Positions 4,384-46,940 of a stretch of 64,000 nt of DNA are shown here, piece by piece (within the stretch, counting starts at the first letter, position 1; the number at the start of each line of letters is the position of its first letter). Source of the DNA: Takakia lepidozioides. Its lineage: Eukaryota > Plantae > Bryophyta. A program made the position numbers and the translations under genes. Under the pieces are notes generated by a model. The model worked only from the letters and a program-made list of their open reading frames with translations, made no database searches and was not told where the DNA came from. The DNA lies in contig CM060733.1 in the NCBI GenBank assembly GCA_030704615.1, positions 6,076,001 to 6,140,000 of the forward strand, read 5' to 3'.

Positions 4384-4551
4384 ATAGTCAGACTGTGCCC
4401 CACATGCATAACCTAATTGTTAACATATGGGGCTAATTCCGTTTTCAAGAATTTCAGCATACATATGTCGAACTCCCTGGAAATGAATTGACATCTGCCA
4501 ACTGCCAACAGGACTAACTTCGCTGTTAAGAATCCTCACCAGCGCTCATGT

Positions 4552-17254: not shown

Positions 17255-18105
17255 GTAAACTAAAAATCTGAAGTTTGCAAAACTGAAAATTGAAGTCTGT
17301 AAAACTGAAATCTTTTTTAACTGAGATGTCTGAAGGAGTAGCTGACTGTAAACTGAAAACAAAGGTCTCTAAAACTAAAAACTCAAGTCTGTAAACTGAC
17401 TACTGAAAACTGAAATCTGAAGTGTGTAAAACTGAAATCATTCGTAGTTAAGAAATTAAATGATATGTCTGAAGGACTGGCTGAAAATCGTGCTGTAAAT
17501 TGAAAACTGAGGTCTGTAAAACTGAAATCAATGATAGTTAAGAAATTAACTGAGATGTCTCAAGGACTGGATGAAAATCTTGTTGTAAACTGAAAACTAA
17601 AGTCTATAAAACTGAAAACTGAAATCAATGGTAGTTAAAAAGATAACTGAGATGTCTGAAGGACCGGGTGAAAATCTTGTTGTAAACTGAAAACTGAAGT
17701 CTGTAAAACTGAAATCAATGGTAATTAAAAAATGAACTGAGATGGTGGCTAAATTTTTTGTTGTAAACTGAAAACTGAGGTCTATAAATTGAAAATTGAA
17801 GTTTGTAAAACTGAAATCAATGGTAGTTAAAAAGATAACTGAGATGTCTGAAGGACCGGGTGAAAATCTTGTTGTAAACTGAAAACTGAAGTCTGTAAAA
17901 CTGAAATCAATGGTAATTAAAAAATGAACTGAGATGGTGGCTAAATTTTTTGTTGTAAACTGAAAACTGAGGTCTATAAATTGAAAATTGAAGTTTGTAA
18001 AATTGAAATCAATGGTAGTCAGAAATTTGCTGAGATGTCTGAAAAACTCGCTGAAATCTTGCTGTAAACTGAAAACCGAAGTCTGTAAAACTGAAAACTG
18101 AAGTA
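17255..18105. repeat. Minisatellite built from (A)AACTGAAA motifs, with ~90-100 bp units and a ~191-bp higher-order duplication
   Basis: ctgaaatcaatggtagttaa...actgagatgtctgaaggac...gttgtaaactgaaaactgaagtctgtaaaa is repeated; 17620-17810 is nearly identical to 17811-18000. Confidence 0.92.
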
Positions 18106-19399
18106 TGAAGCAGCAGCATCCAACAAAGTAGACTATAGATGTAGAAAGTCAAAAACTCCGAGCAAATCCGAGTAAGTCCTAGCATATGCTAAATGATCGC
18201 AAAGGCTGAAGCAGGATAGACATGAAACAGTTCTATAGTCTAGTATGTTGTAAGATCTAGGTCATCTACACACAGCAGAGGGCGCTCTCGCTTGAGTGCT
18301 CCTACCATAGCTTCAAATTTAAAGAGAGAAAATGATTTGCAACTAGAGAAGAAGAGGCATAGCAAGAGAAAATAAAGGAGTTTGAGATAAACATAATTTC
18401 ATCTTTATACCTTCATAGGGAGTAGTTATCAATGACCTAAATGAAAGACCTTTATAAAAAAAAAAACTGTAAGTAAAAGACCTAAATGAACATGTTTTTT
18501 TGTGACGTCCTTTCATATGGGGTAATTATGAATGACCTACATGAAAGACCTAAAAATGAAAGACCTACAAATAAAAGATCTAAATGCTTGTAACGTCTTT
18601 TCATAAAACTAATGCTCAAATTCTACCAAAGCGAATAAATATTCGGGGCGTGCAAAGGTTCGATCCCAGAACATCAAGTCCATGCCAATTATTAAGCATC
18701 GTGGAATACTAAAGTCTATATATCAGAAGTTTTGTTCCACTAATTTTTTTCATGAAACTAATGCTTATTTGACCCAGAATCATCTAGATGACACATATTG
18801 TATTAACTTGTGGAGGTATATCCTCCAAATTCGGGTGTAGGTACCTCTAAATGGGTGTTTTCTAGTGTAGGTGTTTTCTGGTGCAAGTATTATCTAGTGC
18901 AGGTATTATCTGGTGTAGGTACATCAGGATCTTGGCTCTTTTCAGCACTGATGCGTGGTCTCCTCTTGAGAGAGGAGCCAATAAAAACCCTTGGGTGCCC
19001 GAAGGCTGCCATAAGGCATGTTCACACGGAGGCCATGCTGGATAATTCATGAACTATGGCACTATGAAGAAAAAACCATATGAGCAGGCTCATGGAATGA
19101 GCCTCATTGCCTCTGCAACCTCAAAATAGCGAGCCAATGCCATAACAAATATGAATCGATGCAGTCAAGCCCAGAGGGCCCTAGTCCTTGAGTACTCCTA
19201 CCCTGAGATGTTGCCCGAATGAAACTAGCAAACACTATGGCCTAGAACAAGAACCAATGAAGTAACTAGAAGAATTAAGGAGAAGAAGAAGGTGAGGTGA
19301 GGAGGGAAAGTGGGAGGGGAGGGGAGGGGGAAAGCCCTACGGGGACCCTCCTCTGAAGACTGAAAATGAGGCCTTTCTACGAGGAAGAGCTTGCCCCCC

Positions 19400-22097: not shown

Positions 22098-22235
22098 CAA
22101 GATGTAGCCCAATGGTAATGGGCACAAACCATCTCAAAAGTGGTTGCGGATTCAATCCACTGATGGTTGTCACAAAAGTGTCCGCCTACTTGCTGGAAGC
22201 TAATATCCCTTGGGGACACAATTTTTTTTTTATTG
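22098..22235 (+). mobile_element. tRNA-derived SINE (family 1)
   Basis: A-box-like tagcccaatggtaa, B-box-like ggattcaatcc and a T-rich tail. Homologous to copies at 22301, 37964 and 59931. Confidence 0.65.
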
Positions 22236-22300: not shown

Positions 22301-22356
22301 CAAGTTGTAACCGAGTGGTAATGGGCACATACCACGTCAGAAGTGCCTATGGGTTC
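22301..22356 (+). mobile_element. 5' half of a family-1 SINE, cut at its B-box by an LTR
   Basis: caagttgtaaccgagtggtaatgggcacatacc...tatgggttc aligns with the 22098 and 59931 copies, then switches to TGTCA at 22357. Confidence 0.65.
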
Positions 22357-25260
22357 TGTCATGGTTTTAGTCATGGTTGTCTAGAATTACCTACTTCTAG
22401 TTAACTAGGACATTTTAGATATTTATATTTATATTTTGTGTGTTGGGACTTCATTTGGTCTCACATGTCAAGTGAGGTGTCGAGCCTCACTTGAGACATG
22501 GAGATAGGTTTTCCCCTTGTGAGTGTTGAGGAGGCTCATCTTCTTGTAGTTGAGCCTCCATGAGCTTCTCTCACCTCCATAGCTCTAGGTATTGAGAGAG
22601 AGTGTGTTGAGGGCTTTGTAGGGTGGATTCCTTTAACAAAGGTGCCCTTGGCTTGACTTAGTTTATGTGATAGAGTGGATTTCACTTGGAAGGACTAGGG
22701 CTTGTTCTTCATGTGATTGCTTCATGCTTTGAGAGCTTTCATTGTCTTATACTTCTCTCATTTCTCATCTCTTATCACTACAAGAAGATCACCTTATGCT
22801 TGTGAGTGCGGAGTGTAAGGATTAGTTTTGCACTTGTATTTTAAAGAGGTTGAGAGCTAGGAGAATTTAGCTCTTATATCACAAGGTTTGCAAAGGGTTG
22901 CAAGGAAAGGTGCTCGAGTATTGCATGCACCAAGGAGTTGGAGAGCTTGAGAAGAAAGCTCTTGAGTCACAAGATTTTGCAAGGATTGTAAGGAGGAAGT
23001 CTTGTGTTTGTGGAAGCATGGATTCTAGGGTTTGAGAATCATTTGTATGCGTTATGGAGTCGATGGTGTGCGCCATGGTTTGTGGAGAGTGACTAAAGGT
23101 GCATGTGTGGAGCATGCTCGCTTGAGTTTGTAAGTTCAAGTTTGAGAAGGGAAGCTCTTGAACTAGCAAGAGGTGAAGGCCTTTGAGATCCATTTGTGTG
23201 TGAAGTGGAGAGGTGTTGATTCATGTTATGATGAAGGAGAGCAACACATAGGCCAAGAGGTCATGAAACATGCATTCAAATGACCACGGGGAGCACATGG
23301 ATGATGGATTGGTGCAAGACCCCAAATGAGGCATATGGCGTGAGAGTGGGATCCAAGGCGGATTGCTTGGGAGCATTATTGTAAGTGACAAGCATTGCTC
23401 CTACACATTGAGATAATTTGTGTTGATTTGGAGCAATTGTCAAGTGATGAGGAGACAAATGCATGATTGCTCGGCAATTGAGATATGGTAGTTTGCAATC
23501 AAATCCCAAGGACTAGAAGGGGGATTGATTTGGTGGACAATGACTTGCAAGTTGAGTTGGACCACTCTTGGTTGCATATTGGGGTAGAAGAGAGCAAGAA
23601 GATGCCTCTTATGACCACCTAGAGACCATATTTTTGCTTGAGTAGAAGCATAGAAGTCAAGGACTTGCATTCTAGCTCTTCATTACAAACCCTAGTAGTG
23701 TATGCTCAGACTATACCTCTGTTAGTATACCAAACAGGATCTTGTCCCTTTGACTATACCTCGGTCTGGAAAGTTTGAAGGTCCCACATGGATGGAACTG
23801 CGGCACCGCATTTCCGTCCCACAGCTCCAGGCCTCATATACAAAACGAAAATGCGGTGCCGCATTTCCGTTCTGGAATGTTGGAAGGTGCGACTCGGACG
23901 GAAATGCGGTGCCGCATTTCAGTTCCAATGGTTCACGATTTTCAGTCACAACGGAAATGCGGTACCGCATTTCCGTTCTAGAGAGTATGAAGGTCTCAAA
24001 TGGACGGAAATGCGGTGCAAAATTTTCGTCCCTCCGCTCCATGCCTGAGATAGAAAACGGAAATACGGCGCCGCATACCATATGTGAACCCTAATGTGAG
24101 ACTATACCTCTGTTAGTATACCAAACATGAGCTTGTCCATTTTACTATACCTCTATTGAGGTATCACCATATGTGAACCCTAATCAGCTCAGACTATACC
24201 TCTGTTAGTATACCAAACAGGAGCTTGTCCCTTTTACTATACCTCTATTGAGGTATCACCATATGTGGACCCTAATCAGCTCAGATTATACCTCTGTTAG
24301 TATACCAAACAGAACCCTCATTTTCAGACTATACCTCTGTAAAGGTATCATCAACATAAGGGACCCTAGCAACCTCAGACTATACCTCTGTTAAGGTATC
24401 AACAGTGAAAGGACTTAGTGAAATTTAAGGGCCTTTGGAGGATTGTTTGGAAGATATTTGAGGGCCCTTGGAGGAGTATTTGGAGGATCTTTGGGGTCCT
24501 TGGAGGAGTGTTTGGAGTATCTTTGGGGTCCTTGGAGGACCCTTCGAGGAGCTTTGGTGGACAATGTTGAAGAGCTCTTGAAGGATTGATTGAGGGATAC
24601 TGAAGGATACTTGCCACGGCCATACAAGCGAGTGGATAGAGACAGGAGGAAGAGTGGTGGGATGAGAGCATTCTGGGGTTAGGAATTGCTTTAGTTTCTC
24701 TTCTCCATAGTCTTTCACCCTCTCTGTAGGCCAAAACCTTTCCGTAGGTGGAGGCAAGAGTCAGTCCGGGTTTGGGCTGGGGTGTCCTTGCAGGAGCGAC
24801 ACTGTGAAGTGTTTTTGGTGTGGGGGAGTTGCTGTCTTGATTTTCTTATGTTTGGATCCCCTCCACACCTGCATGCTTGACTGTGCGCCATGTTAGCTTT
24901 GTGTGGGCGCTTGTTTTCATAGGAGGTTGGTCCGGATTGGAAATGCGGTACCGCATTTCCGTTCCACCTTCACATACCTTAGTTGATGAACAGAAATGTC
25001 GTGCCACATTTCCGTTCGGGAAAGTATAAAGTCTCACCTGAATGGAGATGCGGTATGTCGGAAGGTGCGACTTGGCCAATCCTAGAGTATGTTGTCGGTG
25101 GTGAGGCTGGAGTGATGACCAGCAAGACCACCAGTGTTTCTTCTATGGTGAGGCTGGGTTGATGACCAGCAGACCATAGGAGTGCTTGCGGTGGATGCAG
25201 GTGCAGGTACAGGTCTACGTTAGAAACCTATTATTCGTGCTTGAACTAGTAGCCGCAACA
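22357..25260 (+). mobile_element. LTR-like region upstream of the gag gene (probably composite)
   Basis: Starts TGTCA and shares blocks (ggaggctcatctt, ttggcttgactt, ttatcact.caaga.agatca, gcatgtgtggagcatg) with the minus-strand LTR at 35605-37963. Contains internal tandem repeats. The tentative end is ...gccgcaACA at 25260. It lacks the sequence that starts the 3' LTR at 32808. Confidence 0.6.
23700..24400. repeat. Tandem repeats ctcagactatacctctgttagtataccaaacag, interrupted by a palindrome array with 53-bp period (23793-24080)
   Basis: ctatacctct-based units of ~45 and ~92 bp. The near-perfect palindrome cggaaatgcggt(a/g)ccgcatttccg starts at 23793, 23846, 23899, 23952, 24005 and 24058, with further copies near 24938, 24991 and 25043. 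Confidence 0.92.
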
Positions 25261-25343
25261 GGTTCTTTACCCGGTTACCTTGTAGAAAGTGGGGATTAGA
25301 GACAGGTTGACAACCGGTTGGGTTGTGAGTTTTCATCACGGAG

Positions 25344-26800
25344 ATGCCACCAGCTGCTGAGGGGAGTGCCGGTACAAGCACCAGCGATACTAGTGGGTAC
25401 ACAAAACAAGGTGTGCGGTTTAGGCCACTTTCACCTTCAGTGTCTTCTGAGGAAGGTTCAGACTCGGAGTCAGGAGGATTCTCGCCGAGGGTGCAAGTCA
25501 TTTCCGTGCCATTATTGTGGGACACGATGGAGGAGATGTATGGAGCTACCAAGGGGCCACGTAGGTACTCTGGAGCTGTGGGCACCATCGAGCTTGATAA
25601 CCTTTTACAAGAGTTTGACAGTTGGTGCGATTTGCAGCAAATGCGCAATCCACAACTGTTTACGCCCTTTATGGCGTGGAAGGGGCTATTCCAGCACCTT
25701 GAGGGGCCGCCCATGGATGATTACCATGAATTTAGGCGGGGACATACGGTGGAGATTGAAGAGTGGCGAGAGTATTGGTCACCTAACTATGTCTCAATCA
25801 CTAGAGGCACAAGGGCAGCGGTGACACCAGCAACTACACAAACATCTCCAACTACAAGCACTAGTAGTGGAACAAGTAGTGCCGGTACTTCTGCAGGTGG
25901 TACCAGTTCAAAAGGTGCTACTACTTCTCCTGCCACAATTACAACACATGTGCCTAGATTCAACCCGGTGGTGGAGTTCTTCCAGGAGTTGCGGAGGAAC
26001 TACCAAGGTGTACGGACAGAGAAGCTGCGAAGTTTGCAAGACTTCCAGCGCAAATCCAGTGAGAGCTTGCGAGAGGCCTACACTCGTATGAGGCGCTTGA
26101 TAAGTGTGACCCAAGGGGTTACTGAAGCTCAGGCAGTCCAGTTCTGGTATGGAATTTTGGACAAGGAGCTCAAGAGAAGGGTACGGGATGCAACCCTGTT
26201 ACAAGCGGCCCAACCCACATTAGCGGATGTGTTTTTGTTGGTTGAGCGGATTGAGCTCAACATGGTGGAGGAGCGAGTTGTTACCATTGGATTTGACAAG
26301 GACATGCCTGCACGAGGTGCAGCTGCCAGTCAACAGGTACAAGGGACTGCCCAACAGCGTGGTCAGGGGATCTAAGGTTGCCCAACCCAAGTTCCATGGA
26401 GCTTACAGGGGACCTCAGGTGCAAAGGCCCGTGGCATCTTTTGCAGGCCAACAGCAACCAGAGGTGATATGTTGGACATGTGGAGGACCTCATGTCAAGA
26501 GAGATTGCCCAGAGAGTGGCAGAAGGCCGGCACAAGCACAGCCTGCACAGTTGCAGTGTGGGCATTGTGACAAGTATGGGCATGGAGATGCCCAGTGTTA
26601 TGACTTGCACCCTGAGTTGCGCCCAGGCCAGTTCCAAAAGAACAATGGTGGCCGGGGGCGAGGTGGACCAGCCCAGAGAGGACGAGGTGGTCGGGCACGA
26701 GGTGCAGGCCAAGGGCAAGCTCAACATGGCCAAGGACGCGGAGGTCAGGGTGTTGACCAAGACATGGCCAACCGGCTTCAGCAGCTAGAGCAGAGGCTCG
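25344..26800 (+). pseudogene. gag: Gag (capsid-like domain, two zinc knuckles, RGG-rich tract)
   Basis: Gag signature LQDFQRKSSESLREAYTRMRRL...FWYGILDKELKRRV. After a frameshift near 26370 come CWTCGGPHVKRDC, CGHCDKYGHGDAQC and GGRGRGG repeats. Confidence 0.88.
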
Positions 26801-27519
26801 CTGCCATGGCTACAGCTCAGGTGGTACCGGCTCCCAGGCGGGATGGTCCACCTCCTGCTCGTGAGGGAGGAGATATGGGAGGCATGGGATTCATGTGCGG
26901 AGCAGCACTACCACTAGTGCATGTGGAGTCTGCTGCAGCCGTAACTCAAGGAGTAGCACGAGTTCCTGAGCCACGAGGTGCAGAGGTGGAATTGGAACCA
27001 CATCGTGGGGAGGCAAGCCATCAGGCGAGGCTTCCTCAGTCATTCACATTGGCGGAGACAGTGTCGACGCCATCCATGGCACCTCGCCCGACTGTTACCG
27101 AGGCGGAGGTCACTATGTCATTGGGGAGAGCTACACGTGCAGCACTGACACCTGCTACCAAGGCTAGTGCAGCCGGTGTGTTATTGGGGGCAGCCACCTC
27201 TGTGTGTCAAGCCCCACTGTTCTCGGCAAGCATGATTGCGACGCTGGGGGTAAGACCGGCTGCAGTGTTCAGACTAGCAGCAACACTCTACGAGAGTGGG
27301 GAGATCACTTCATCTTCTGCGGAGTTACTGGAAGGTGTAGTGGCAGAGGGATCCTCGGATTTGAGGGTCAAGACTGCCACGGCTGCGCCATGGCAAGCTG
27401 CAGCTACCAGGTTGACGGAGCTGCCAGCTAGGCCAACCTTTGAGCGCGCCATGGTGACACCTGGAGTTGTCTTGTTAGACAACCAGGGAGGCATTTTCAC
27501 TTTGAGTGGACCGGCAGAC

Positions 27520-27830
27520 AAGAAGTACCGGCCACTGCGGGTCTTGTTGGACTTAGGAGCTCAGCCACTGATGTTGGGCAGAGCTGCTATTGCAGGTTTG
27601 GGCCTCATGGAGGCGGATATGGAGCCTTGTCCTTTCCAGATACAGACATCTCTGGGAGGATCAGAGCAGGCTCGGGGCATGACACGGCGTGAGTTGGCCA
27701 TTGGACTATAACCAGATCATCCTGTAGATGGCTCAGTGATGCGAGCCAAGGCCATTGTGACAGACGCGGTCTCTTACGATGTCCTTGTTGGTGGGGCAGT
27801 GTTATATCCCATGGGCTTCACCCTGGACTT
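27520..27830 (+). pseudogene. Retroviral-type aspartic protease
   Basis: RVLLDLGAQ (DSG expected; GAC TTA GGA is one C>T change from DSG) and downstream YDVLVG. In-frame TAA at 27709-27711. Confidence 0.75.
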
Positions 27831-28264
27831 TTGGGAGGAGTCAGCATCCTATAGGCCTGGATGGCAGTCAGGGGATGGTCATCGTGCACAGCTCCCTGTG
27901 GACATTCATTGGGGGTATTGCGGCTGCCCAGCGGGGCAAGATGCCAACACTAGCCGCCTTTACAGCTGCAGTTAGTTGGCCTAGAGAGTTGCTGGAAGGC
28001 AATGCCCATGCAGAGGATGTGCCACCTCCAGCAGAGCAGGATGACATGCATGGTATGGCGGAGTTGCCTGCCATGGTTGCTCACACTCCATTATGGGGTA
28101 CGAGCAAGGATTTGCAGCAGGCTGCTGATGGACGGGTACAACAAGCCTGGGTAGAGGCCTTCGTACCGTCAGGAGAAGAGGAGAGTGTGGTGATTGCACC
28201 AGGACCACCTCAGTTGTCGCCATTGGACACCACACCTCTTGTGTGGCAGTGCCCGGATGAAGAC

Positions 28265-29130
28265 ATATGCCTTCTGGACTTGTTTGGCGGGATCAGCACT
28301 GGATTGGCTGCAGTACTGCAGGCAGGTGTACGAGTTCAACGTTACCTGTATGTGGAGAGGGATGAGACTTCACGACGCGTCTCACTGCGCCATGTTGCTC
28401 AGTTGGTACAGCAGTACCCTGATTTGTTGCCAGTGTCTGCAGTTTGTGGATACCAACAAGCCTTACCAGCAGACATTTCATTGCTGGGGGTGCAGGATTT
28501 GGAGCGGGTTGGCTCCATTGATCTGGTAGTGGCAGGTTGGCCCTGCCAAGGGCATTTATCAGCCGGGCATGGCAATGGATTGCGAGACTCGAGGACGGGT
28601 CTGTTTTGGGAGATGGTGCGAATTTTGCGCCACTTGCAGCTTCATCAAGCTGTATCTCCAGCATACATCTTGGAGAATGTGCCACTGATGGGTGATTCTC
28701 GGGCCAGGCTGATGGCCAGTGTGCATCAAGTCCGGTCGTGGCTTGGGTCAGCAGTGTTGCTGGATGCAGCTGCAGTGGGGTCATGGGCTCATCGTCCACG
28801 GCTATGGTGGACTAACTTCATGCCACCCGCACTGCTCAAGCGTGCATTTGATGGGGTGCAGCGGGTAGCACACCTCACAGTAGATAGCATTTTGGACACA
28901 GGGAGGCAGTCTCAACGTGTGAGACATGATGACCGTTTGTCTTTGGCAGTGGTCAACAGGGTGGATCAACCACGAGCAACATTACCTACACTGCTTAGCT
29001 TCCCGGGATCCCATGCTTTTCGGGATGGTGGACCTGGCCTCTTGTGGGATAGTCAATTGCAACAATTAGTGGAGCCCGTCGTCAGGTGTTGGGGCAAGCA
29101 ATGGATCTCAATTGCTTGACCTGGATTATC
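28265..29130 (+). pseudogene. C5-cytosine DNA methyltransferase domain embedded in Pol
   Basis: Motif I LLDLFGGISTG, II YLYVERD, III ADI, IV DLVVAGWPCQG (PCQ at 28541-28549), V GLRDSRTGLFWE, VI ILENV (28673), VIII AHRPRLWWTN, and X RRQVLGQAMDL in the next frame (from ~29077). Motif IX is missing at the frameshift. Confidence 0.93.
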
Positions 29131-29565
29131 AGCTTGGCTATGGCTGAGCAGCGCAGAGTACGGAGTACACTTCCCTTCATGGTCTCCCTGCCTACCGAGA
29201 TGGTACAGGCAGCGAGTGGGGGCGAGCAGGTGAGGACCACGAGGTGCAGGCCGCATCCATGGCACACGTGGGAGGTGCTCGAGGTTCAGAAGGAGTTGGC
29301 AGCCAAGGCGGCGGTGATGGATCAGGTTGGGGATTTTTCTCAGATTGAGGAGGTCCTCAAGGATGGGATGATGGGGCAGGATGAGACATTGTCACTGACA
29401 GAGGAGGTAGTGGTCACTGCTCAAGAGGTTGCAGCATAGCAACCACGGGACGCGTCTTCTACCTCTAAGCCTGCTGGACTCAAGGTTGCAGTCACGGAGG
29501 ACAATTGGGAGCCTGATGTTGGACCTATAGTCACCGGAGGATAGAGACGACGTATACGGCGATTT

Positions 29566-30935
29566 TTGAGGGCTTACAGGAACTGCTTTGCCTTCAGTTT
29601 GAAGGACTTAGGAGCACTGAAGGGTCAAGAGATTCGCATTGAATTGGCTACTGACACGCCAATCTTTCGGAGACCCTATAGATATAGTGACATGGAGAGG
29701 TCCTTGATTCAGATGAGAACTCATGACCTTTGGGAGGCTGGTTTGGTGGAGCTATCTGGGGGAGAGTATGCTTCAGCCACAGTGATGCCAACCAAGAATG
29801 ATGTCTTTGGCAATTGGATGGAGAGACGTATGTGCGGTGATTACCGGCCTGTAAATCGTCAGACCAAGTCCGATAGGTATGCCATGCCAACACCAGAGGA
29901 GATCTTTGATGCCATTGGGCATGCCAAGGTCTTTAGCACGTTGGATTTACGATCCGGATATCACCAGTTGCCGATCAAGGAGGCGGATAAGCAAAAGACA
30001 GCATTCTGGGGGATCAATGAGCACGGGAAAGATTGCCTATACCAATGGCGATTCTTACCATTTGGGCTTAAGAACGCTCCGGCAGAGTTTCAGAGAGTCA
30101 TGGACAGGATTCTAGCAGGGGTGGGGAGTTGCTCGGTGCTACATAGATGACATCATCATCTTTAGTGCTACGGTGGAAAAGCATGAGAGACACCTTCAAG
30201 GGGTATTTGAGCGCTTGAGGGCGCACGGATTGAAGTTACATCCGGGAAAGTGCAAGTTTTTCCACAACCAGATTAAGTATCTGGGTCACATGATATATCC
30301 TGGAGGATTGGGGGTACAGCAGACTAAGGTAGAGTCCATTGCACAGGTTCCACACCCCACGGATGTGAGCCGAGTTCGAGCTTTCATGGGGTTGGCAATT
30401 TATTATAGACGGTTTGTTAAGGGATTTAGTGCCATTGCAAAGGCTCTAACCAAGCTGACCAAGGTGGACCAGGAGTGGCAGTGGGAAGATGAACAAGAAC
30501 AAGCTTTTCAAGAGCTCAAGGCGAGGTTGACCTCCGCGCCCATCTTGAGACGACCTATCAGGGGGTGTCCTTTTCAGCTGCATACAGATTGGAACATGCT
30601 GGGGCTTGGAGCGGTGCTCACACAGGTGGATGATGAGGGAAGAGAGTTCGTAGTGGCTTATGCTAGCCGCTCGAACAACGTTGCAGAGTCTAAGTATAGC
30701 TCATATGAGGGAGAATGCTTAGCTGCAGTGTGGGCCGTGGCACACTTCAGGTGCTATCTATACGGCAATCTCTTCACCCTTGTCACGGATCACCAACCAC
30801 TCAAGTGGATGATAGAGTCAGACAAGCTTACGGGGAAGCTTGCACGGTGGGCACTCATCCTTCAAGAGTATGACTTTCAGGTGGTGCATCGACCGGGTTT
30901 GGTCAATCGCAATGCAGATGGGTTGAGTCGCAATC
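29566..30935 (+). pseudogene. pol: Reverse transcriptase and RNase H
   Basis: RMCGDYRPVN, FSTLDLRSGYHQ, PFGLKNAPAEFQR, frameshift near 30125, YIDD at ~30140, YLGH. RNase H motifs LHTDW, ECLAAVWA, TDHQPL and NADGLSR. Confidence 0.96.
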
Positions 30936-31279
30936 CATGCACGAGCCAGCAGGATGACACTGGAGCTCGGTGGCATGGTGAGACGGACGAGGAGATGGTG
31001 CCCGGATGGCATGCATCTGCATTTCTGTGTATCTTGGCAGCGGAAGGCCAGGTTGGACCTGCAACAGGGATGACTGTAGATCAAGTGTCCAAGGACCCTG
31101 AGGCCAGCAATGAGCAAGGTGGCTCCAAAGATATACATGAGGATTCAGTTGTGTTGGACTACCTCCGCACTGGAGACACTCCAGCCACTGTGACTGCCAA
31201 GGAGAGGGATCGGATCCTACAACGAGCCAAGAGGTTCAAGTGGGAGGATGGTCGAGTGAGGATTGTGCCTCACCCAACA

Positions 31280-32550
31280 CAGCGGGCACGGTTAGTGCGG
31301 CATGCCCATGAGGAGTTGGGGCATTTTGGGGTGCGACGCACTCATAGTCTACTGCAGGGGCAGTATTGGTGGCGTGGTATGCACACAGAGGTGCAACAAT
31401 TTGTGGCTAGGTGCATGGTGTGTGTGACAGGGTGCGTGCTTCATTCAACGCCCCTACTCCACAATTGCACCCTCTTCCGATCATGGGATTGGGCTACAGG
31501 TGGAGTCTTGACTTCGCAGGGCCGTTGCCACTGACCATGCGCCACAACAAGTACGTGTTGGTGATGGTAGAGCACTTCTCCAAGTGGATTGAATTGGTTC
31601 CATTGCCTGATAAGGCTAGTGAGAGAGCTGCGTATGCATTCTTGGATTGTGTGCTTAGCCGATTCGGTGCTCCAGCTGAGGTACTCACGGACCAAGGGAG
31701 AGAGTTCTTGGGGGAGTTTCAGGCTTTGTATGACAAGGCCTTAATAGACCACCGCACCACTTCTCGGGATCATCCTGAGGCCAATGGCTTGGCAGAGAGA
31801 GTTGTTCAGACAGTAAAGAGGGGTTTGCGCAAGTATGGCTTGCAGAAGGGACACCTAGGAGATTGGGACCTTCAGTTACCCTGGTTAGCCATGGGCTACA
31901 GGTTCAGCAAGCAAACATCACTTGCCTCCTTCTCACCATACTTTCTTCTCTTTGGCCGAGAGCCGGATTTGCCTACATCCATTCGCAGAGAAGCTGCTAC
32001 AGTTCTTAACCTTGACGATCCGGACGTATGGGCACGTGCATGTGAGCAGCGTGCAGAGTTGTTCAAGAAAGTCATGCCCATGGCTTTCGAGAACCTTGCC
32101 ATTGCACAACATCGTGATACGTTGAGGTATGCTACCATACGTGGTGGGGGCTATCGTCCTGGGGTTCGGAGATTCAACCCTGGTGACTATGTTTATCTGC
32201 AGCAGACTGCTCCTATGACCTTGGATGTGACTGCAGGACGTACTATTTTGAGGGTTCGAGAGGTGTTGCCCTCAGGAGTCATGATCTTGGAGGGTCGGGA
32301 TGGCATGATTTGGAAGGACCATGTGCGTAATTGCGCGCCATGTCACCTTCCAAATGTTGATGGAATGGTTGACCCAAACCTGGCAGTGGTACCTGCAAGT
32401 TTGAGGTGCATGTTGTGTGGGTCTGCTAGAAAGGTAGCCACCATGCTGGTGTGTGATCAATGCTCTAGAGGTTGGCATATGGGATGCTTGACTCCACCTC
32501 TTGAGATGGTTCCTGATGGGGATTGGTTATGTCCGCATTGTATTGGATAG
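31280..32550 (+). pseudogene. Integrase with C-terminal PHD finger
   Basis: HHCC zinc domain HEELGH...CMVC (frameshift in a gt run near 31420); catalytic WSLDF, TDQG and AERVVQ. The C-terminus CMLC..VCDQCSRGWHMGCLTPPLEMVPDGDWLCPHC (32407-32541) is a C4HC3 PHD. Confidence 0.95.
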
Positions 32551-32796
32551 TGGGAGTAGATACAACCATGGAAGGCTAACAAGAAATGCAAGGCCAAGCT
32601 ACTAGGAGACCAACACACGAGATCCTGACTCAAGTTCACAGATTGCAAGACGACAACTAACGATGGGGTTGCTCTTGTACCCGGCCTCTTGGTCTATAGA
32701 GTTTGAGTACAATAGGGACAGTGATAGAGGACTTAGTACGGCTGTGGCTATTACATCTTGTAGCTATCTAGAGTTAGAGGGACCTAACCACCAGCT

Positions 32797-32806
32797 AGGG
32801 GGGCGA
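32797..32806 (+). promoter_or_regulatory. Polypurine tract
   Basis: aggggggcga immediately before TGTGG, ~250 bp after the integrase stop. Confidence 0.75.
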
Positions 32807-33190
32807 TTGTGGTATAGCTTTCTAGGATTGTGTGCTTAGATTGTGTGGTGGACAGCGATGTATGTTGTGGCACGATGCTTAGGTGCACGACAGCATTGTG
32901 GTATAGCTTTCTAGGATTGTGTGCTTAGATTGTGTGGTGGACAGCGATGTATGTTGTGGCACGATGCTTAGGTGCACGACAGTTCAATCCACCAATTGGT
33001 CTCATAAACTGTGTCGTGCGCATACATATCGCTACACAACTACATCGTTGTCCAAAACCACACAACACATGTGCACACCACACACTAGTATACCACTAGT
33101 CCAGCCACTAGTCTAACCACTAGGCTGCCACTAATCAGTCACTAGGCTGCCACTATGCTGTCCACTATGGCAGTCACTAATCCACCACAA
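32807..33190. repeat. Start of the 3' LTR duplicated in tandem (89-bp period), then an inverted related copy and an 11-12 bp ccacta minisatellite
   Basis: 32807-32893 is identical to 32896-32982. 33009-33097 is an imperfect reverse complement of it. ccactag..-type units run from ~33094 to 33181. Confidence 0.85.
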
Positions 33191-33339: not shown

Positions 33340-34889
33340 ATGTGTGTAATTCACTAATTGTTGGGAGGGGGGGGTGCATAGGTATCGTGGGATGCACTGA
33401 TTGGGGGAGAGATTGATGCCGCAAACAAGGCCAAATTTGACTGGGCATGCGAAGCAACAACAGTCCGCCTTGACAAGCACGAATCCACACACAAGTGGGG
33501 CGCCGGCAGATCCAACGGTTATATCTTGCGATTAGTAAGTCGTACTTCCCTATGGATTTTGTTATGTCTTCTTTCTTGCTCCATCATCGCGAAGAACTGA
33601 CTTTAATTTGTGGCATGTGTAGCAACGCGCGTTTGAGAGGAAGCCATCTTCGGTAGAGTACAACTATGCCAATGAGCATGGTTGGCAATCCCTCATGAAG
33701 AACATGGCCAACACGGAGGGGATGAGTGCACTACAGTGCACTAGTATGGATGAGGTCGGGGGTCATGGCCAGGGATTGGATGTGAACTTTGTGGGACTTA
33801 GGGGAGCGCCGCCTCATTTAGGTGCTCTGGCAAAGGACGCGGAGTCATCAAACTCATTGGATAGCTCTGAGTCCTCCACTGAGGATGAGGATGAGGATGA
33901 GTAGTCATAGTCCATGTAGGTCCCAGGGTCAGCCTACTGAACCCTTGTGAGTTTTTCAGCTCATTTCCTGTAAATATATTTCCATCTTTTCATCTTCCAT
34001 CTTATTCATGTGTCGCACCGTTCTTACCCTCGATTCATGCTTGCTCAATTGTGTACCTGCTAGATCAGCGATATGGAACTGTAAGGTCTCATATCCCCAA
34101 AAACAAAACCAGGCAAAAAACAAAAAACCACCCCCAATTCACCCCCAAAATCAACCCCCAACACCCCCCCCCCCCCCCACCACCACCAGGCTGCCCTCGC
34201 GACTGCATGATGTCGCCAATGGCGACGTGCTTTTTGGGCGGGGGTCGCAAGCTGCGACGGTCGGACATCGCAAAACCCATTTGCGGGCGGCAACGCCCGA
34301 CACCCCCTACGACGTGTTTTTTTGGTTCGGGGGTCGCAAGCCGCGACGCCCTGGCATCGCGGAGCCCGCCACCCTGCCTGCGTCACGTTTTTTTTTTTTT
34401 TGATTAAATATAAAAAAAAACAACGCCAGAGCGTCGCGAAAACCCACGCCCGGGCGTGGCGGAGCCCGACTCTTGCTCCTGCTGTTTTTTTTTGCCTCGC
34501 CCAATAGTCGTTTGGCGTACCACCCCCTTACGCCACGTGTTTTGGGTTTTAGGATGGGACTCGAAAAAAAAGGGGATGCGACGCCGCGCTGGCGCCCCCA
34601 CCAATGCCATCGGCTGGAGGGCCGCGACGGCGAGATGTCGCTCGAAGGAGGCCCCTGCCATCGGCGCGGACGGCATGAAAAGCGACGTCCGGCAGTCGCG
34701 GGAGTTGGGGCGGGGGCTTGCGACCCCCATACGTCGCATTTTTGCGACGCCATTTTGGCGACGCCCATGCGACTGCCGGACGACTGTCGGGCGACGCAAA
34801 TTCTGCGCCTGCCCCCTGCTCAAAATCGGCGTTTTCCCGACGTTGCGGCGTGGCTCGAGCGTCGCAAAGGCCCCCCTTTTCCTGTAGTG
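33340..34889. mobile_element. One end of a CACTA/EnSpm DNA transposon inserted in a gag gene
   Basis: Terminus ...ccccttttcctgtagtg (CACTACAGGAAAAGGGG on the minus strand) at 34889. Dense direct and inverted gcgacg subterminal repeats at 34190-34870. Two exon-like segments (+) end in an acidic tail SSTEDEDEDE* at 33904. Other TIR not found. Confidence 0.85.
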
Positions 34890-37800
34890 TTCGATCGACA
34901 ACACATTGAAAGCCTGAACATATCCCCGAATGTCATCCGTTTGCTTCAAATTCCTCATCTTGTCTCGGGCAAGCCAGGATGCGTTGAGGGGCACAAACTG
35001 TCTTTTCATAAGTTCTTTGAACCTACTCCAGCTCAAGGTTTTTGGGTTTGGACCTTGGTCATGAAGGCGTTTCTGCCACCATTGTTGGGCATAGCCCCTC
35101 AAATAGGTGGGAGCCACTTCCACCCGATCTTCATTACTCAACTTGGCCGCCCAGAAGTACTGCTCTAGCTCCAAGAGCCAGGTGTTGAGTGCCTTCCGAT
35201 TTCAGACGCCCTCGAAGGTGCCGGGTTCCTTAGGCTTCACCTTAAACTTTGCATTAGTGGAAGTGGCAGTAGCCGCCATCAATACGTCTTTCAACGTCCC
35301 GCCAATCTGCGCCAACAACCCTTCCCAAAAGGTTGCTGGCATGGGAGACATCTGTTGGTATGGCGGAGCCTTTGGGAAGTCCTCGGGCTCCGACTCCCAA
35401 AATTCCTCCCGTTCTTGAGCGGCCTCGCTTTCAGAAGCATGAATCGTCTCTTCCAAGTGCCGCTTCGGTGACACATCGCCCCCACCGGGCTCACCAGGAT
35501 CATCATCTTTCGGGCCGTTCCGCTTTCGCTTTGTCTTGCCCGACCCCATGATGAGGCCGATCTCAAGCATGATCGCGTACTGAACTCTAAGCTCTGATAC
35601 CAAGTGTCGTGCACCTCCCTTCGGTAAGCTCCCCTTCACGTCATAGTTACTCGCTTTGATGCGCGCGCCTAACTCCCAAACTGGCTGCCGGGCCAACTCG
35701 GAGCTTCGGCTGCTCACGGGACATAACGGTCCCCCTTTGCTCCTCCACAAGACCCTCGCTCACTTTGGGCCTAGTGGAAATTCCCTTTGGTTGTTGGCAG
35801 TCCGGAACAGCTCCCCACACCTTGGTCGCTTTCCGGCTCGCACGCTTACTCACTAGTTTTTGGTCACCAACGGGCTTGCACCGTTCTTGGGGTTACTACT
35901 CCCTATACATACTTCTTTGACTGTCCACGGGGGTTTCACAAACAACACCGTCCTTTTATGACAAACCACCACGAAGACCCTTGACTCCCGGTGATGAGTC
36001 GCGGTGAGTCTTGGCCCACCCACCACGGCCCCAATGGACAGTGATGAGTCCCAAGACTCCCCACGACTTCCACCACAAGGTCTCCGCCCCATGGTGAGTC
36101 CTATCCACCCCCACTAAGATCCACTAAGCTACCACCACCTCTCATGGAACCACCCCCACCGCAACTCGGTGTGCGGGGTTCCACCTAGTGAGCGCCTTCG
36201 CCTCCTTGAGTGCCTTGGGCACTCAAGCGTGCTTCAGCCCCGTACCTATTGTTGCCATTGCCCCCACCACAGGGGCAGCCCCTCTTGTGTCCCGACCCCC
36301 TTGCCCTCAAGGCAAAGGGCCGCGACATGCTTGCAACCAAAACTAAGTGCACAAGCTTCCCTTTAACTCCCAAAACATCGCCATTGATCCCTATGGCGAC
36401 TAGCCAAACATGGCTGACTTCCAGCCCTAGTAGGTAGTCATTCACGCACTTTCCTTGACCATAGCATGCCCCTTCGCACCTAATCCAGCTCCTGCACATG
36501 CTGCTTCAAGAGTCGTGCTCTATCTAGGCTTGAAGTTGAAACCCCAACTCAAAACATGCTCTACAAGTGCTTTTCTTTCACCCAAGTGGAAACCAGCCCT
36601 AGCCCTTCCATTCTAGCCTCTAAAGCTTGAAAACAAAAGCCTCAATGGACTGAAGACATGCTCCACACATGCCCCACTCTCACCATAAGAGAATCAGCCT
36701 CTTTGCTTCCTTTCATGCACCCACAAACCTGAAAATACAAGCCTTCAACGGGCTGAAAGCATGCTCCACACGTGCCTTACAGGGAAACCAGTCCCTTCCT
36801 TCCTTTCTTGCACTCCCAAATAACAAGCCTTCAACGGGCTGAAAACATGCTCCACACATGCATTGCCCTCACATAAGGGAAATCAGCCCTTCCCTCTTCA
36901 TTGCTTGCCCTCCAAGCTTGAAGATGAAAGCTTCAATGGGCTGAATGCATGCTCCATACATGCAACCCCTTTACACAAGAGGTATCAGCCCCCTATCTTG
37001 GCTCCTTGGCTCGTTGATGCTCTCTAAAACAAGACTAAGCAATCTATAGCCTTTGCCAAGCTCCTGCAACCCTAAGGTTTACATTTCCAGCCACAAGACA
37101 CTCCCCTTGTGATGCATGAGCTCCTCTTCCAAGCTTTGAAACCCTAGGCACATTCCATGGCCTTGCCGCACCTCTTAGCTCCTGTTCCAGCCCTATTCTT
37201 GCCATGGCAAGAGCCCTTATATTGCTGGAGTTTCAGATTGAAACTTCCAACTCAACATAGCCACAAATGCATTGGCTTGCATACAAGGAAAACTAGCCCT
37301 CTCTCTTCACTTCTACCTCCTCATGAGCTTGAAGTTGGAGCTCCCAATAGCTGCGACTTGCATCTAACACCTTCGCAGCTCCACACTCACCACACGTGGT
37401 TGCCACAACATTGAGCTATGCAACACCGCTCTTCACCATAGGCTGCCCGCCTCTATATCCATTGCAAACCTGAAACCTGTTCGCCTTCACACCCTATCCG
37501 CTTTGGATAGGCTCATGCAATGATCCCTGCTCTTCTCAAGATCTGCAAAGCAGTTGCTTCTCATCTGAAAACACACAAGTGCTAACAACTAACTCGTATC
37601 TAGCACTCACAGATACGAGCTGATCTTTCTTGAGTGATAAAGAAGAAGAATACAATCATAAGCTCATGCGAGCTCACAAAGCTGAAGCATAAACTCATGT
37701 ATATATAAACTCATCACTCAAATACAAGTCAAGCCAAATGCACCCCACGCCATGGGATTCCACACTACGGCGCCATAGCTAGGCGTGGTGAGGCTCATCA

Positions 37801-41829: not shown

Positions 41830-43690
41830 CGTTTTGTGAAAGGGGATGAGGCCCTTGTTAGTTTTATTGAATATTATTTGAAGGGAAAAAAATTAAAACC
41901 CTTACATGCCCGTAGGCTGCCATGAGGCCTATCCCACGATAAACGTGTTGGAGAATCCATGAGAATAGAGACCGAATGCCTGCCATGAGGCAAAAAGAGC
42001 TGATTTTTGTCTAGGACCTAGATCTGAAGGAGCGCCCAAGCTAGGGATCTGACTTATGAGGATGAGACTGATGGCGAAAAAAGGGGGGCGGTAAGACCAT
42101 TATGACCAAGGTGACAGGCGGATCGTTGATGAGGAAGACCAAACAGAAGCTCTGACTAAGGGAAACACTGATTGCATGGAATCTATCCTAAGAACTGTAA
42201 TCGAGCTCGAGAGGCCACCTTCACATGTTTCCAGTTGATGTTTGATTTGTCAAATTCCAGAGATGCCGAAGATGAGGGACCAATGCCTCCAAGGGTCGGG
42301 AATTCCTCGAGGCCACTCGCATGAGCCTGCTCCAGTGCATCTGCAAATGAGTCCGTCCCTCCTCCACGTGTCCTGGAAAATGGCGAGGATGGTGAACTGG
42401 CGTTGAGGCTTCCTGGCGACCTCTACACACATTTTTGCCCAAGCCAGTTTAGCAGGAACCGTCAAGTCAAAAAACACTTGAATGAGGATGGCGGTGGCCG
42501 AGGTATTGTGAGAGTCCAAAGTCCATCTGCATCTGGCTTTCCATAATTGCCATAGAGTTGCAGATCTTAAGGTTTCAAAAACTGGACAGTCTGAGGCCCT
42601 GGATTTTTCGTTGTGATTGTAGTTGAGAAGCAAGGCAATGGGTCCCAAAGGGGGTTGTCCCCAAGGGCGATAGAAGGGTAGGACTAGGTGCCATATCATC
42701 ATTGGGGCAATGCAGAAAAGAAGGTAGTGTTCCAAGCTTTCAATCGTATCTATTGAACAACATTTGCATAGGAGAGCGTCCTGGAATCCTAGATATTGCC
42801 CTACCTTCAATACCCTGTTGGCTATTTGCCAGAGAAAAGCACTGAGCTTTGCTGGTTTTTCCTTGTCCCAGATCAGACTCCAAATACTGTTCCAATTTTC
42901 CATTATAAAGCCCGCGTGCCCCCATCTAGTGTTCCATTTGACATAAAAGGAACTGGTTTTGTTAAGTGCCCTGTAAGCCTTTTTCGAAGAGAAAGCAAAG
43001 AAGGGCTGGGGGGAGGTTTTGAATTTCCAAAGCCATTCAGCCAGGTCTATATGCTGATTTTGCAGTTGATGGCCTCCAATCCAGGTGAACTTTTCTTTTG
43101 CCACCCAGGCTGAGGTGGGGGACCCCAATGGTTGAAGTCTTTTGAATCTGAGCTCCATTGACTGGCCTTGCTCTCGCCGAGGGGGTAATGGCTTCTTGAG
43201 GACTCAGAAGAGACAACATTCCAGAGAAGGGGTCAGCTAGGAACCTGTAACCTATGAGCATTGCATTCTGTATTGCGGTAACATAAAGGATTTGGAACTC
43301 CCTGTCTTCAAACATCACCCATTGGGTTGGCCTTATTGGGAGATCACTTGCAGCAAGCAGCGTTCTCCAAGGGTCTGGGACAGAGGCTAGGACTAGATGA
43401 ATTCCGGAAGTCAGTCTGCGGGAACCCAAAGCATCTTGGAGAGAAGCTGGCGTGCTGATCCAGAGGTCACTTACTTTGCTAATGCCCCTAGTCTCCCAAG
43501 CCGTACACCTTTTGGCTTGCTCTTTCTCTAGCGGGGATGGATTGGCCGAGTTGAGGAAGAGTTGTTGTCTGAGGGTTTCTTGGAAGGTAGTGGGTGCTTG
43601 CTTGATCAAAAAAGGCCTAAACCTGTTCCATGCTCTCCATATGGAGGTCCATAGGGGAGATCCCGCTATCTTGTGGTTGAAACCTTGAGA
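41595..43690 (-). mobile_element. Second 5'-truncated L1-clade LINE with long poly(A) tail, plus an extra short 3'-end copy
   Basis: zf-RVT-like region FSSKKAYR...WSLIW...KLSAFLWQIANRVL...CKCC..ESLEHYLLFC...LWQLWKARC (42250-43158). T-run at ~41785-41829. Related 3'-end sequence is repeated at 41600-41710. Confidence 0.92.
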
Positions 43691-44146: not shown

Positions 44147-46940
44147 ATGGCGGCAATATTTCTCCATCCTGCGCGTGGGTGGACATCAAGCGTGCAAGCT
44201 GCATCCTCTCAGGAACAGCTTAGTCAAAGTAGGCGAACTTGTCTTAGGAGTTGTTGCAAACAAAGGCAGCTCGGCAGACGCACAGTTCTGCTGGAGAGCG
44301 AATTGATAAGGAATAGACGCGGAAATATGATGGCTGTGCAACATGGAGCACAGAAGCGGTTACTGGTGGACGTTAGAGCAGGTTTCGAAGAACTAGCTCA
44401 CAACCAGGCAAGGACAATTGCAGACAGTTTTGTGACTTATGTAGCCATTGACTGGTTCATCGATGAACCGTGGGAGATAAGCGAATATTTAGCCTATAAC
44501 AACATTACTTGATTTGTCACTTCGTGTGTCCAATCCAAATGCGAGAGTTGTGCAAGTAGCGTGTAGAGGAGCGTTCGGAAGTGAAATTCAGTCCTTGTGC
44601 AGGGATATCACTTGGAAGAGTGATGTTAACCGAAATTGAGTGTCCACCTATGTCTGCCTATTGGTGCGCCGAATTCTCGAATAATGAAGTTAGAAGCTGG
44701 CATGTCATAATAATGGCTGCCATACAGGTAAGTAGTTGTTAATGTGGAATGCTTGTCGTCTTAAGTTTAAGCATTGGTCGAAGAAGGACTTCATTGTGAA
44801 TCAAGAGATTTGCTATAGGGGAAATTGGACCCCGGACTGGGATCTTGCATTTTTCTTCCTTTGATTACTCAAAGAGCAGGTGGCGATTTCTAGCCACTTC
44901 AGCCTGTGATACAACACGTTGTGTCTGCTATCCTGAACCTCTGCCCTCTTAAGCCTGTCATGCGCATTATGCCTTGTAAGTTGTGTGCTAAACTTGGCAC
45001 ACCTGTAGTTCTGGTATTGTTGCGACCTAATTGACCATGTTTTAGGGAAAGAGAGGGTGGAATTATGTTATTCATGGTAACCTCACATTTTAGTGAATGA
45101 CCTCACATTTTGCTGCGTCTTGACTTGTAACTACTCTCTGTCAATGTGGACAGATTCTATGCTCTTCAGTTGCTGCAGGCATACTAGGGCAGCTCACAAA
45201 GCCCTTCTCCTCAGCTGTGTCTGGGAAAGGGTTCAACTGGAAGCTTGTGACTAAGTCTGGTGGTATGCCTTCCTCCCATTCTGCTGTAAGCACCCCTTCC
45301 TTTGCTCTTGGCTCCACGTGTCACACTGTTAGGAGTGAGTGTTTGTTAAGATAAACTGGCAATCACTCCATTGTGTTTTATTTGGCAAGCAACACTCTCT
45401 CAGCAAAACCTGAGGTTGAAATTGTGATGGATACTGTGCAGCTTGTGACCGCAGCTGCAACAGCTATTGCTTTTGAAAGGTATTCATGTGGATGATTTAC
45501 TTGAGGTTGCTATTGATACTTGTGTCAGATGTGTTTTTTCCTTTAAGAAGTTGCTGTTTAGTAGTACTACGGCTTACTACAGGTGCTACAGCCTTGTTAG
45601 GCCCAGGTAGTTTGTCTTGTGAAGTTACCTTACAAGAATGTTCATGCCAATGTTGTGCATTGTGCTTTACAAATTTTGGCTGAGTATGTGGGCACGGGGG
45701 CCCCTAAAGCCAGTCAAGTCTCTGCCCTGTTGGAAGCTTTGGATCAATGTATGCAGTAGAGCACACCCTCAGATAGTATGGACAGTCAACAAACTTGCTT
45801 CCTGCGCTAATTAGCTTTGTTTGCATGGTGGTGCTGGCAGGGGTTTGTCTGATGGAGTGTTTGGCTTGTCGATGGTGCTAGCAGGGATTGTTATGTATGA
45901 TGCCCAAGTAAGTAGCAACTATCAATCATTCTCATGAGATTTGTAGTGAAAGTACCTCTCATGAGTTGCAAGATCAAAGAGTTCAGCGCTCCTACTGACC
46001 AACCTCAATATTAGTGATCCACTGTCACATTCGACCTTTGGGCACAATTATGGAGATGCCTAGCAGAAGTGAGGGGTCTGAGCTGGGAAGAGTTGACTCC
46101 AACCTTAACTTCCTGTCCAACATGGAATGAGTGATGGACACTCATTTCTGCTTGTCTCTAGAAGCCATGCCTTCACATTTCTATGCTGCATCATCCGTCA
46201 TAGGCTGCTGTCAAATTTTACAGCTACCAGCAGTCAAATCTATAGTTTCGGCACTTAGAGGATCCCTGTATGGTGTATGAACCTCATCTGAAAGAGGCAT
46301 GTGTTGAAGTCTATGCACACTGCATTGCTGCCTCTCTAAGCTGTAGAGTTGTAAGTGAAGCACCGGGTGCTCAATCTCCGACTTGATGCAGGGGGTGAGA
46401 AATGCAGTTGGAAAACAAGCAAAAGTTATCAACACAATGGTGGTCACATATATGCCTGTGCCTCATTCTCGAACTGCCAATACCTCCTTGGCTCCCTCCC
46501 CTTCTGCAATTGGTTCAGAACTTGTCAGTGGCCCTGTGAAAGCTGAGCTGGCTTTTATGGCAAGTGTTGACTCCCCAGCTCCAACACCAAGAGTCTCATC
46601 AGCCACAGCAACAATGTACAAGGGTGAAGATCAGCCCGCAGAGTCTTGTGCAGTAGAAGATGCCTCATCCAACAATTCAGAATTGCCAGAACTTGCTAAT
46701 GGAGCAGCCAATGCAACTAATGGAGCCTACATCAGACCAAACAAATTCTTCGAGATGGCAGAACAGCTCCCAAGCATGAGGGAGGGTCAAGTTGATATAC
46801 AGGAACTAGGGTCCCAAGATGGGTGGCGCAACATACCATTGAAGGAATCCATTGGGCACACAAAACTAGAAGTCTTTGCTGGAGGTGTGTGGGGGGTTCT
46901 GATCTCATATGCTCTTCACTCCACATTTGTTAACCATTGA
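44147..46940 (+). CDS. DUF212 / divergent PAP2 (acid phosphatase/vanadium haloperoxidase-related) membrane protein, probably plastid-targeted
   Basis: Exons 44147-44407, 45154-45285, 45442-45479, 45841-45907 and 46392-46940 splice in frame. Motifs ELAHNQ, GQLTKPF, SGGMPSSHSA, IVMYDAQGVR, LKESIGHT..EVFAG. Intron 1 uses a GC donor. Confidence 0.92.

Follow-up and report, generated by a model that had tools for sequence, protein, structure and literature searches.

The window, i.e., the whole stretch of 64,000 nt of Takakia lepidozioides DNA analyzed here, contains a Ty3/gypsy element of 10.6 kb at 22357-32981. The element starts with TGTCATG at 22357, ends with CACGACA at 32981, and has the 4-bp TSD GTTC on both flanks. 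In the 5' to 3' direction the domain order is gag, zinc knuckles, protease-like region, DNMT, RT, RNase H (RH), H2C2 finger, integrase (IN), and PHD finger. The features, all on the + strand, are as follows:

22353..22356, +, left TSD copy GTTC (matches 32982-32985)
22357..22780, +, A1 terminal repeat, begins with TGTCATG (right end approximate)
25329..26375, +, 5' part of gag, frameshifted at its end (weak Retrotrans_gag match, E 0.0018)
26224..27711, +, zinc knuckles and aspartic-protease-like region, broken by a stop, with DLG at the active-site motif position
28250..29150, +, DNMT3-type C5 cytosine methyltransferase with motifs I, IV (PC), VI (ENV), VIII, and X; motif IX lost
29437..29445, +, conserved in-frame stop TAG-CAA-CCA between the Gag-AP-DNMT and RT-RH-IN-PHD frames
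29545..31423, +, reverse transcriptase, RNase H, and integrase H2C2 finger; stop at 29542, frameshifts near 30125 and 31418
31411..32406, +, integrase core (D, D, and E present) and C-terminal domain, SH3-like by eye
32407..32541, +, C4HC3 PHD finger without cage Trp or acidic wall; H3-A1 pocket and R2-binding Asp kept
32808..32892, +, B1 terminal repeat (TG...CA), 3' of a purine tract
32897..32981, +, B2 terminal repeat, identical to B1
32982..32985, +, right TSD copy GTTC

The window copy is dead: gag, the protease, RT, and the H2C2 finger are all frameshifted, the frame is interrupted by a stop at 29542, and DNMT motif IX has been deleted. The stop at 29542 is private to this copy, as about 289,800 of the 290,700 of X1 depth read otherwise. 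Motif IX was lost via a deletion with a frameshift near 29078, and contigs of runs X1, X5, X7, and X9 have additional sequence at 29077. The element family is very abundant, with 43,533 contig pieces from run X1; a search of viral contigs found no relatives. The gag of the window copy is 54-63% identical to that of loci L012, L034, L038, and L068. Its protease-like region has no Pfam match; the homologues P0243 and P0241 have DSG/DTG at the active-site motif.

The A2 repeat, located between B1 and B2 in relatives, is missing from the window copy. The full layout A1...B1-A2-B2 was found in eight of the 19 loci examined (L004, L008, L009, L012, L014, L046, L053, and L063). The TGTCATG start motif recurs in L009, L012, L014, L034, and L068, 4-bp duplications are readable in L008, L009, L012, L014, and L034, and one contig of run X7 has the end of the A1 region immediately 5' of B2. 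The integrated form (L009, L012, L014, and the window) shows TG...CA ends, a 4-bp TSD, and a palindromic B/A junction. A two-LTR circle opened at its internal junction would give such a form, which would be unusual for a DDE integrase.

The PHD finger at the end of the integrase

The ORF at 31411-32550 (379 aa, stop-to-stop) matches Pfam rve (E 8e-14) and the PHD family PF00628, the latter over aa 333-377 (32407-32541) with an E value of 1.8e-10 and 41 bits against a cut-off of 24. The motif reads CMLC...CDQC...H..C...WLCPHC and is followed by two residues and a stop. All eight zinc ligands are present, and Gly takes the place of the cage Trp two residues before the zinc His; both had been pointed out in an earlier note on this DNA, which described an intact C4HC3 PHD at the end of the integrase ORF. 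A homology search gave 552 near-length integrase-PHD homologues and 387 longer ones, with named homologues from Calypogeia, Marchantia, Sphagnum, Klebsormidium, Haematococcus, Pleodorina, and Tetrabaena. PF00628 is present in all 120 longer homologues listed (the query contained the PHD), and the occurrence of a PHD at this position is not due to chance.

An AlphaFold2 model of the PHD with a 54-row alignment reached a mean pLDDT of 82; a single-sequence fold of the C-terminal domain plus PHD (pLDDT 40) was unusable. The best Foldseek matches of the model are the PHDs of DPF3b, ATXR5, BAZ2B, UHRF1, and BAZ2A, most of them at an rmsd of 1.0-1.4 A, and phmmer against the PDB ranks CHD4, PHF12, KDM5B, KDM5A, ATXR5, and BHC80 on top. 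There is no ADD entry among the best 60 of 83 PDB matches. These rankings, together with the retained A1/R2 residues described below, support the KDM5-PHD1/BAZ/UHRF1 class, in agreement with the likeness to KDM5-PHD1/BAZ-type fingers that had been noticed before. Against loci of the same clade (clade A), the PHD shows a dN of 0.23-0.36 with a dS of 0.7-1.0, and the DNMT a dN of 0.26-0.29 with a saturated dS; both domains are under purifying selection.

Histone-contact residues

In KDM5A PHD1, H3 A1 is held by L309, P331, G333, and W335, R2 by D312 and D315, and K4 is contacted by E305, L308, and the backbone of V291-Y294 (10.1101/715474). Neutralization of the matching acidic pair in BAZ2A lowers the H3 affinity 17-fold (PMC5415848). 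We scored these positions over the PHDs of the family, 215 of 241 of which could be parsed; 26 incomplete ones were dropped and four of another lineage set aside, leaving 211. The cage Trp occurs in none of the 211, so that the window PHD, with its Gly, lacks the aromatic cage of the ING/BPTF/TAF3-type H3K4me3 readers. The A1-pocket positions are well kept (L309 class in 209/211, P331 in 202/211, and W335 in 193/211), as is the R2-binding D312 (199/211). Because of these residue counts, we conclude that K4me3 is not read through a cage and that the A1/R2 site is kept in the family.

Aligned to KDM5A/B, the window PHD retains L309, P331, G333, W335, and D312, i.e., the A1/R2 features of KDM5-PHD1 and BAZ2, and lacks the acidic wall and D292: it has V/A at KDM5A E305/D306, S at D315, and A at D292. 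The acidic wall is found in 108 of the 211 PHDs overall, with a strong dependence on the group (84/120 of the chlorophyte-type, 24/63 of the others, and 0/28 of the window-like PHDs). The same window-like PHDs keep the A1 pocket and the R2 Asp in 28/28, 27/28, 28/28, and 27/28 cases. Their net charge is basic (mean +1.3), which is unusual in a binder of a basic tail. PHDs of the window subfamily have thus lost the side chains tied to a K4me0 preference. The earlier note had proposed selectivity for K4-unmethylated H3; for the window subfamily this has become less probable, yet it is conceivable, since backbone contacts could still give some preference. A predicted complex of the PHD with Zn and H3(1-30) scored 0.33 (mark 0.34) and is evidence neither way.

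The DNMT and the stop codon between DNMT and RT

The window DNMT matches PF00145 (E 1.5e-10), and DNMT3A/B/C account for 29 of 30 rows of its PDB matches. Across 91 family DNMTs the catalytic Cys, ENV, and RxR are retained in 87-89. At the position of the catalytic PC dipeptide, P is present in 40/91 and E in 40/91, with the Cys in 87/91. CpG depletion was considered as a sign of self-methylation and rejected: CpG o/e in the element is 0.41-0.56 compared with 0.47 for the window background, and since the depletion equals the background, base composition gives no hint of self-methylation.

In the window element about 1,100 codons separate the DNMT from the PHD downstream of it, and RT/RNase H and a stop fall within this interval. 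In all seven clade-A loci that are in frame, a stop stands at one codon and is followed by CAA CC; these seven are close kin, and the linker in these loci is 411 nt compared with 477 nt in the window. Three further clade-A loci (L042, L045, and L059) are out of frame and were not scored. The type I readthrough consensus is UAG-CAR-YYA, and UGA-CGG is type II (PMC3542737). TAG-CAA-CCA in the window fits the type I context exactly; this exact CARYYA context is found only there, as the other clade-A loci read CAA CCC or CAA CCT. L039 has the type II context UGA-CGG after the DNMT. Record 17 of run X5 and record 19 of run X9 differ from the window by one letter over 29420-29471, and because this sole difference sits at 29457 both keep the stop. 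Consistent with a product that ends here, the ORF1 proteins P0243, P0245, P0248, and P0256 (Marchantia and Calypogeia among them) end 94-100 aa past DNMT motif X. The stop is not universal in the family: the linkers of the moss-B clade are open (L009, L049, L051, L060, L071, and L072), and in P0132, P0135, and P0335 the frame continues from the DNMT into RT with no stop in between. A search for RNA structure 3' of the stop was negative (z 0.13).

Readthrough and reinitiation are both conceivable routes to Pol; in either case the frames of the window subfamily group the DNMT with Gag and the PHD with Pol, and the conserved stop makes it likely that the two are separate proteins. Even without a stop, a retroelement protease would be expected to cut the polyprotein. 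The suggestion that the element recreates the ADD plus catalytic logic of DNMT3 is therefore not upheld for the window subfamily, given the stop, the intervening RT/RNase H, and the expected cleavage, as well as a homologue with the PHD and no DNMT (P0407, below). Such a cis logic fits the chlorophyte-type members better.

Co-occurrence of the two domains and position of the DNMT

Co-occurrence of PHD and DNMT across the family, a check proposed in the earlier note, was addressed by two homologue searches with queries containing neither domain (an RT/RH query in the case of the loci). The RT/RH query yielded 80 metagenome loci, 76 of which are in the family. The DNMT is upstream of RT in 46 of the 49 loci with enough flank, the PHD follows the integrase in 50/52, and both domains are present together in 32 of 35 testable loci, the exceptions having unrelated sequence in place of the missing part. 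These loci are not independent, because they belong mostly to two moss-like subfamilies and include duplicates. Among 150 cluster representatives of the proteins, 30 have a DNMT; 26 of these reach far enough to be judged, and 24 of the 26 have the PHD too. The two exceptions are P0418, with half a PHD before a change of frame, and P0313, which ends without one. The check thus came out positive in both sets.

The reverse association is looser. P0407 is a complete Gag-AP-RT-RH-IN-PHD ORF without a DNMT, and P0238 and P0221, also without a DNMT, are nested in the chlorophyte clade of the RT/RH tree. In the 418 stored proteins the DNMT lies between RNase H and the integrase in 61 and before RT in 10. 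In chlorophyte-type proteins it is found between RNase H and the integrase in a single ORF, at a median of 220 aa from the integrase core. The 26 pre-RT DNMTs form one clade (support 0.95 in an unrooted tree). On this evidence the PHD is the constant add-on of the family and the DNMT a movable passenger, located before RT, between RNase H and the integrase, or absent.

Several chlorophyte-type proteins (P0189, P0205, P0230, P0234, P0165, and others) have a Tudor-like stretch after the PHD, recognized by eye and without a Pfam match. It is followed by an amino-methyltransferase-like domain, with DP..G.G in 30/59 and SP(P/W)F-type motifs in 22/59. PF02086 gave weak matches in two of 26 proteins, and there is no methyltransferase among the best 60 PDB matches to P0189. 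A role as N6-adenine or N4-cytosine methyltransferase is possible for the tail domain, which would then differ from the Dam of the EpiLTR elements discussed below. DNMT, PHD, and this tail occur together in 36 of the 418 proteins.

Two other observations concern integrase-associated PHDs elsewhere. A separate Gypsy lineage (P0386, P0406, P0411, and P0413) has a similar PHD between RNase H and the integrase, and P0411 also carries Dam. The best match in the ESM Atlas is an 80-member integrase plus PHD cluster, with Mollusca the commonest phylum among 24 recorded members; it may be the present family or a parallel one.

Comparison with known elements

The published description of KnitGypsy-Dnmt3 (de Mendoza et al. 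2018, PMC5890265) combines a Gypsy Pol with a DNMT3-type domain that lacks introns and with split direct terminal repeats in a DIRS-like layout. The window element shows the Gypsy order with an rve integrase, an intronless DNMT3-type domain, and split terminal repeats (A2 absent), and on these features it can be assigned to the KnitGypsy-Dnmt3 family, called Gypsy-DNMT3 in a recent preprint (10.64898/2026.05.21.726589). Proteins of K. nitens carry the same IN-PHD as the window element: the integrase-PHD proteins P0010, P0044, and P0106 are 55-56% identical to it. The main text and three supplementary files of PMC5890265 never mention the PHD, which Fig. 4c of that paper may show, and the parts of its text consulted report no bryophyte or chlorophyte members, no two DNMT positions, and no stop between DNMT and RT.

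An analogy is found in chromoviruses (MAGGY, Tcn1, Chlamyvir, and others; PMC6317226), which likewise place a histone reader at the integrase C-terminus of a Ty3/gypsy element. They differ in the fold of the reader, a chromodomain as opposed to the cage-less PHD here, and apparently in their RT/RH clade. We found no chromodomain match in the family proteins; the one match among 418 proteins, obtained with a narrow profile of our own, is the outgroup P0331. An RT/RH tree built from 187 sequences separates 100 family rows from the rest with FastTree supports of 0.95-0.99, and L070 and P0331, the only two Pfam-confirmed chromodomain elements, fall outside. Since this tree is unrooted and has no named references, the phrase "PHD instead of chromodomain" in the earlier note can be kept as a positional analogy, the same place at the integrase C-terminus, and not as evidence that one domain replaced the other.

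PHDs on retroelements have been called widespread (PMC6673714), and Grau-Bove et al. list PHD and Chromo as the commonest TE fusions; the portion of REXdb consulted does not mention PHDs. A PHD as an accessory domain with a proposed role in steering insertion is known from Gypsy-7a_cRei, REM1 of Chlamydomonas, CR1/L2 ORF1, and Chlamys PLEs (PMC9940879, PMC8557442, PMC6673714), and Gypsy-7a_cRei inserts into intergenic sequence 2.6 times as often as by chance. In the accessible parts of these accounts none of the four is listed with a DNMT, unlike the window element. The legend of Gypsy-7a_cRei gives the order RH, PHD, INT, so that by description it fits the RH-PHD-IN lineage above better than the present family.

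EpiLTRs (preprint 10.64898/2026.05.21.726589) resemble the window element in that a single LTR element encodes both a histone reader and one or more DNA methyltransferases; they differ in their parts, which in Cymbomonas and Euglena are a chromodomain, Dam, and a DNMT4-like enzyme, and the preprint states that they are distinct from Gypsy-DNMT3. In animal DNMT3A/B, too, a DNMT3-type catalytic domain is paired with a zinc finger whose class binds unmodified H3, but theirs is ADD; in the window the finger is a canonical C4HC3 PHD on the integrase, and a stop, RT, and RNase H lie between it and the DNMT. Gypsy-DNMT3, PHD-bearing retroelements, and reader-plus-writer LTR elements (EpiLTRs, 2026 preprint) are therefore in print. 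In the openly available paper texts searched, we found no description of the IN-PHD and DNMT3 pairing on a Gypsy element. The present analysis adds to these the stop conserved between DNMT and RT, the loss of the acidic wall in a particular clade, the alternative placements of the DNMT, and the domains that follow the PHD in algal members.

Possible roles of the PHD and the DNMT

Our preferred reading, to which we give about an even chance, is that IN-PHD tethers the integration complex to nucleosomes via the free H3 N-terminus and that a separate, Gag-linked DNMT methylates the cDNA of the element. The stop would be leaky, so that Gag-AP-DNMT would be abundant and RT-RH-IN-PHD scarce, and IN-PHD would be freed by the protease. 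The PHD would contact H3 at A1-R2; it would not favor K4me3 and, in the window subfamily, would discriminate only weakly among K4 states. The DNMT would act on the cDNA inside the particle, as proposed for such elements in PMC5890265, and IN-PHD would dock the integration complex on nucleosomes through the H3 N-terminus. Methylation of cDNA is favored over targeting of the genome because the stop predicts Gag-like amounts of DNMT in the particle.

We consider it improbable that, in the manner of ADD in animal DNMT3, the PHD recognizes unmethylated H3K4 and guides or activates the DNMT of the element. In the window subfamily the two domains are divided by a stop, RT, and RNase H, the K4me0 residues are present in 0/28 of its PHDs, P0407, P0238, and P0221 have the PHD without a DNMT, and ADD is absent from the best PDB matches given above. 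The tight co-occurrence of PHD and DNMT does speak for such a link, which would be most plausible in chlorophyte-type members, where the DNMT directly precedes the integrase and 84/120 PHDs have the acidic wall. Protist, algal, and plant DNMT3s lack ADD (PMC12344493), so that a substitute reader is conceivable. The loss of three acidic H3-contact positions and the net positive charge raise the different question of whether the ligand in the window subfamily is H3 at all; the PHD might instead bind a host protein, the ends of the cDNA, or some other region of the integrase, and atypical PHD targets and plant PHDs without H3 binding have been published (PMC10124903, PMC9640981). We judge this unlikely, as the near-invariant A1 pocket and R2 Asp are hard to explain without an H3-like N-terminal ligand.

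IN-PHD could also act after integration, staying on the new copy and recruiting the separate DNMT or host silencing, with self-silencing as the outcome. Purifying selection on both modules and the CHH and CHG methylation of KnitGypsy-Dnmt3 copies (PMC5890265) agree with this, but host pathways explain the CHH/CHG methylation and CpG decay is not above background, and we give such a role only a small chance. The location of the element in a nested-TE block, which the earlier note cited as support for targeting, does not discriminate. Post-insertion selection predicts a TE-rich location equally well, so the location is uninformative. This argument has been made in PMC6673714.

If the PHD tethers integration, the family would represent a second, cage-less solution to chromatin targeting beside the chromodomain of chromoviruses, extending from chlorophytes to bryophytes; the stop that separates DNMT and RT is relevant to what retrotransposon DNMTs do. 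In Marchantia many family copies are annotated as genes, and chromatin maps exist. A broader picture, more speculative and as a whole unlikely to be right in all its parts, is a green-lineage-wide retrotransposon family in which the PHD is the standing integration tether and the writers are shuffled. The algal one-product form with DNMT3, integrase, K4me0-type PHD, Tudor-like stretch, and amino-methyltransferase-like domain would read nucleosomes and write two marks at the landing site. In liverworts and mosses a leaky stop would supply abundant particle DNMT that pre-methylates the cDNA, and the PHD would have dropped its K4 sensor in step.

Surroundings of the element

The element sits within a short repeat whose A/B-box spacing is tRNA-like, and the insertion point is the GTTC of a B-box-like motif (22310-22356 and 32986-33000). 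An intact unit of this repeat lies at 22114-22158 and a related copy near 59924-60045; ARAGORN calls no tRNA in it. This insertion is a single case, the flanks of other loci being unlike it. The window also contains a second Gypsy gag fragment on the minus strand (34404-35759; PF03732, E 3e-12) in a region that is much less CpG-depleted (CpG o/e 0.82). Repetitive DNA is also present (1-4400, 14975-16061, 17257-18113, and 23700-24400): an array whose unit measures about 700 bp, two blocks of AT-rich minisatellite, and, in the long leader of the element, repeats in both direct and inverted orientation. Further downstream are a LINE-type zf-RVT fragment and exon-sized DUF212 and SNAPC3 matches (42250-43203, 46359-46940, and 47765-48388); the latter two place host genes within about 14 kb of the element. 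Separately, near-canonical N-termini of histone H3 are encoded by 38 viral contigs (L081-L118), and in several of them the tail contains insertions.
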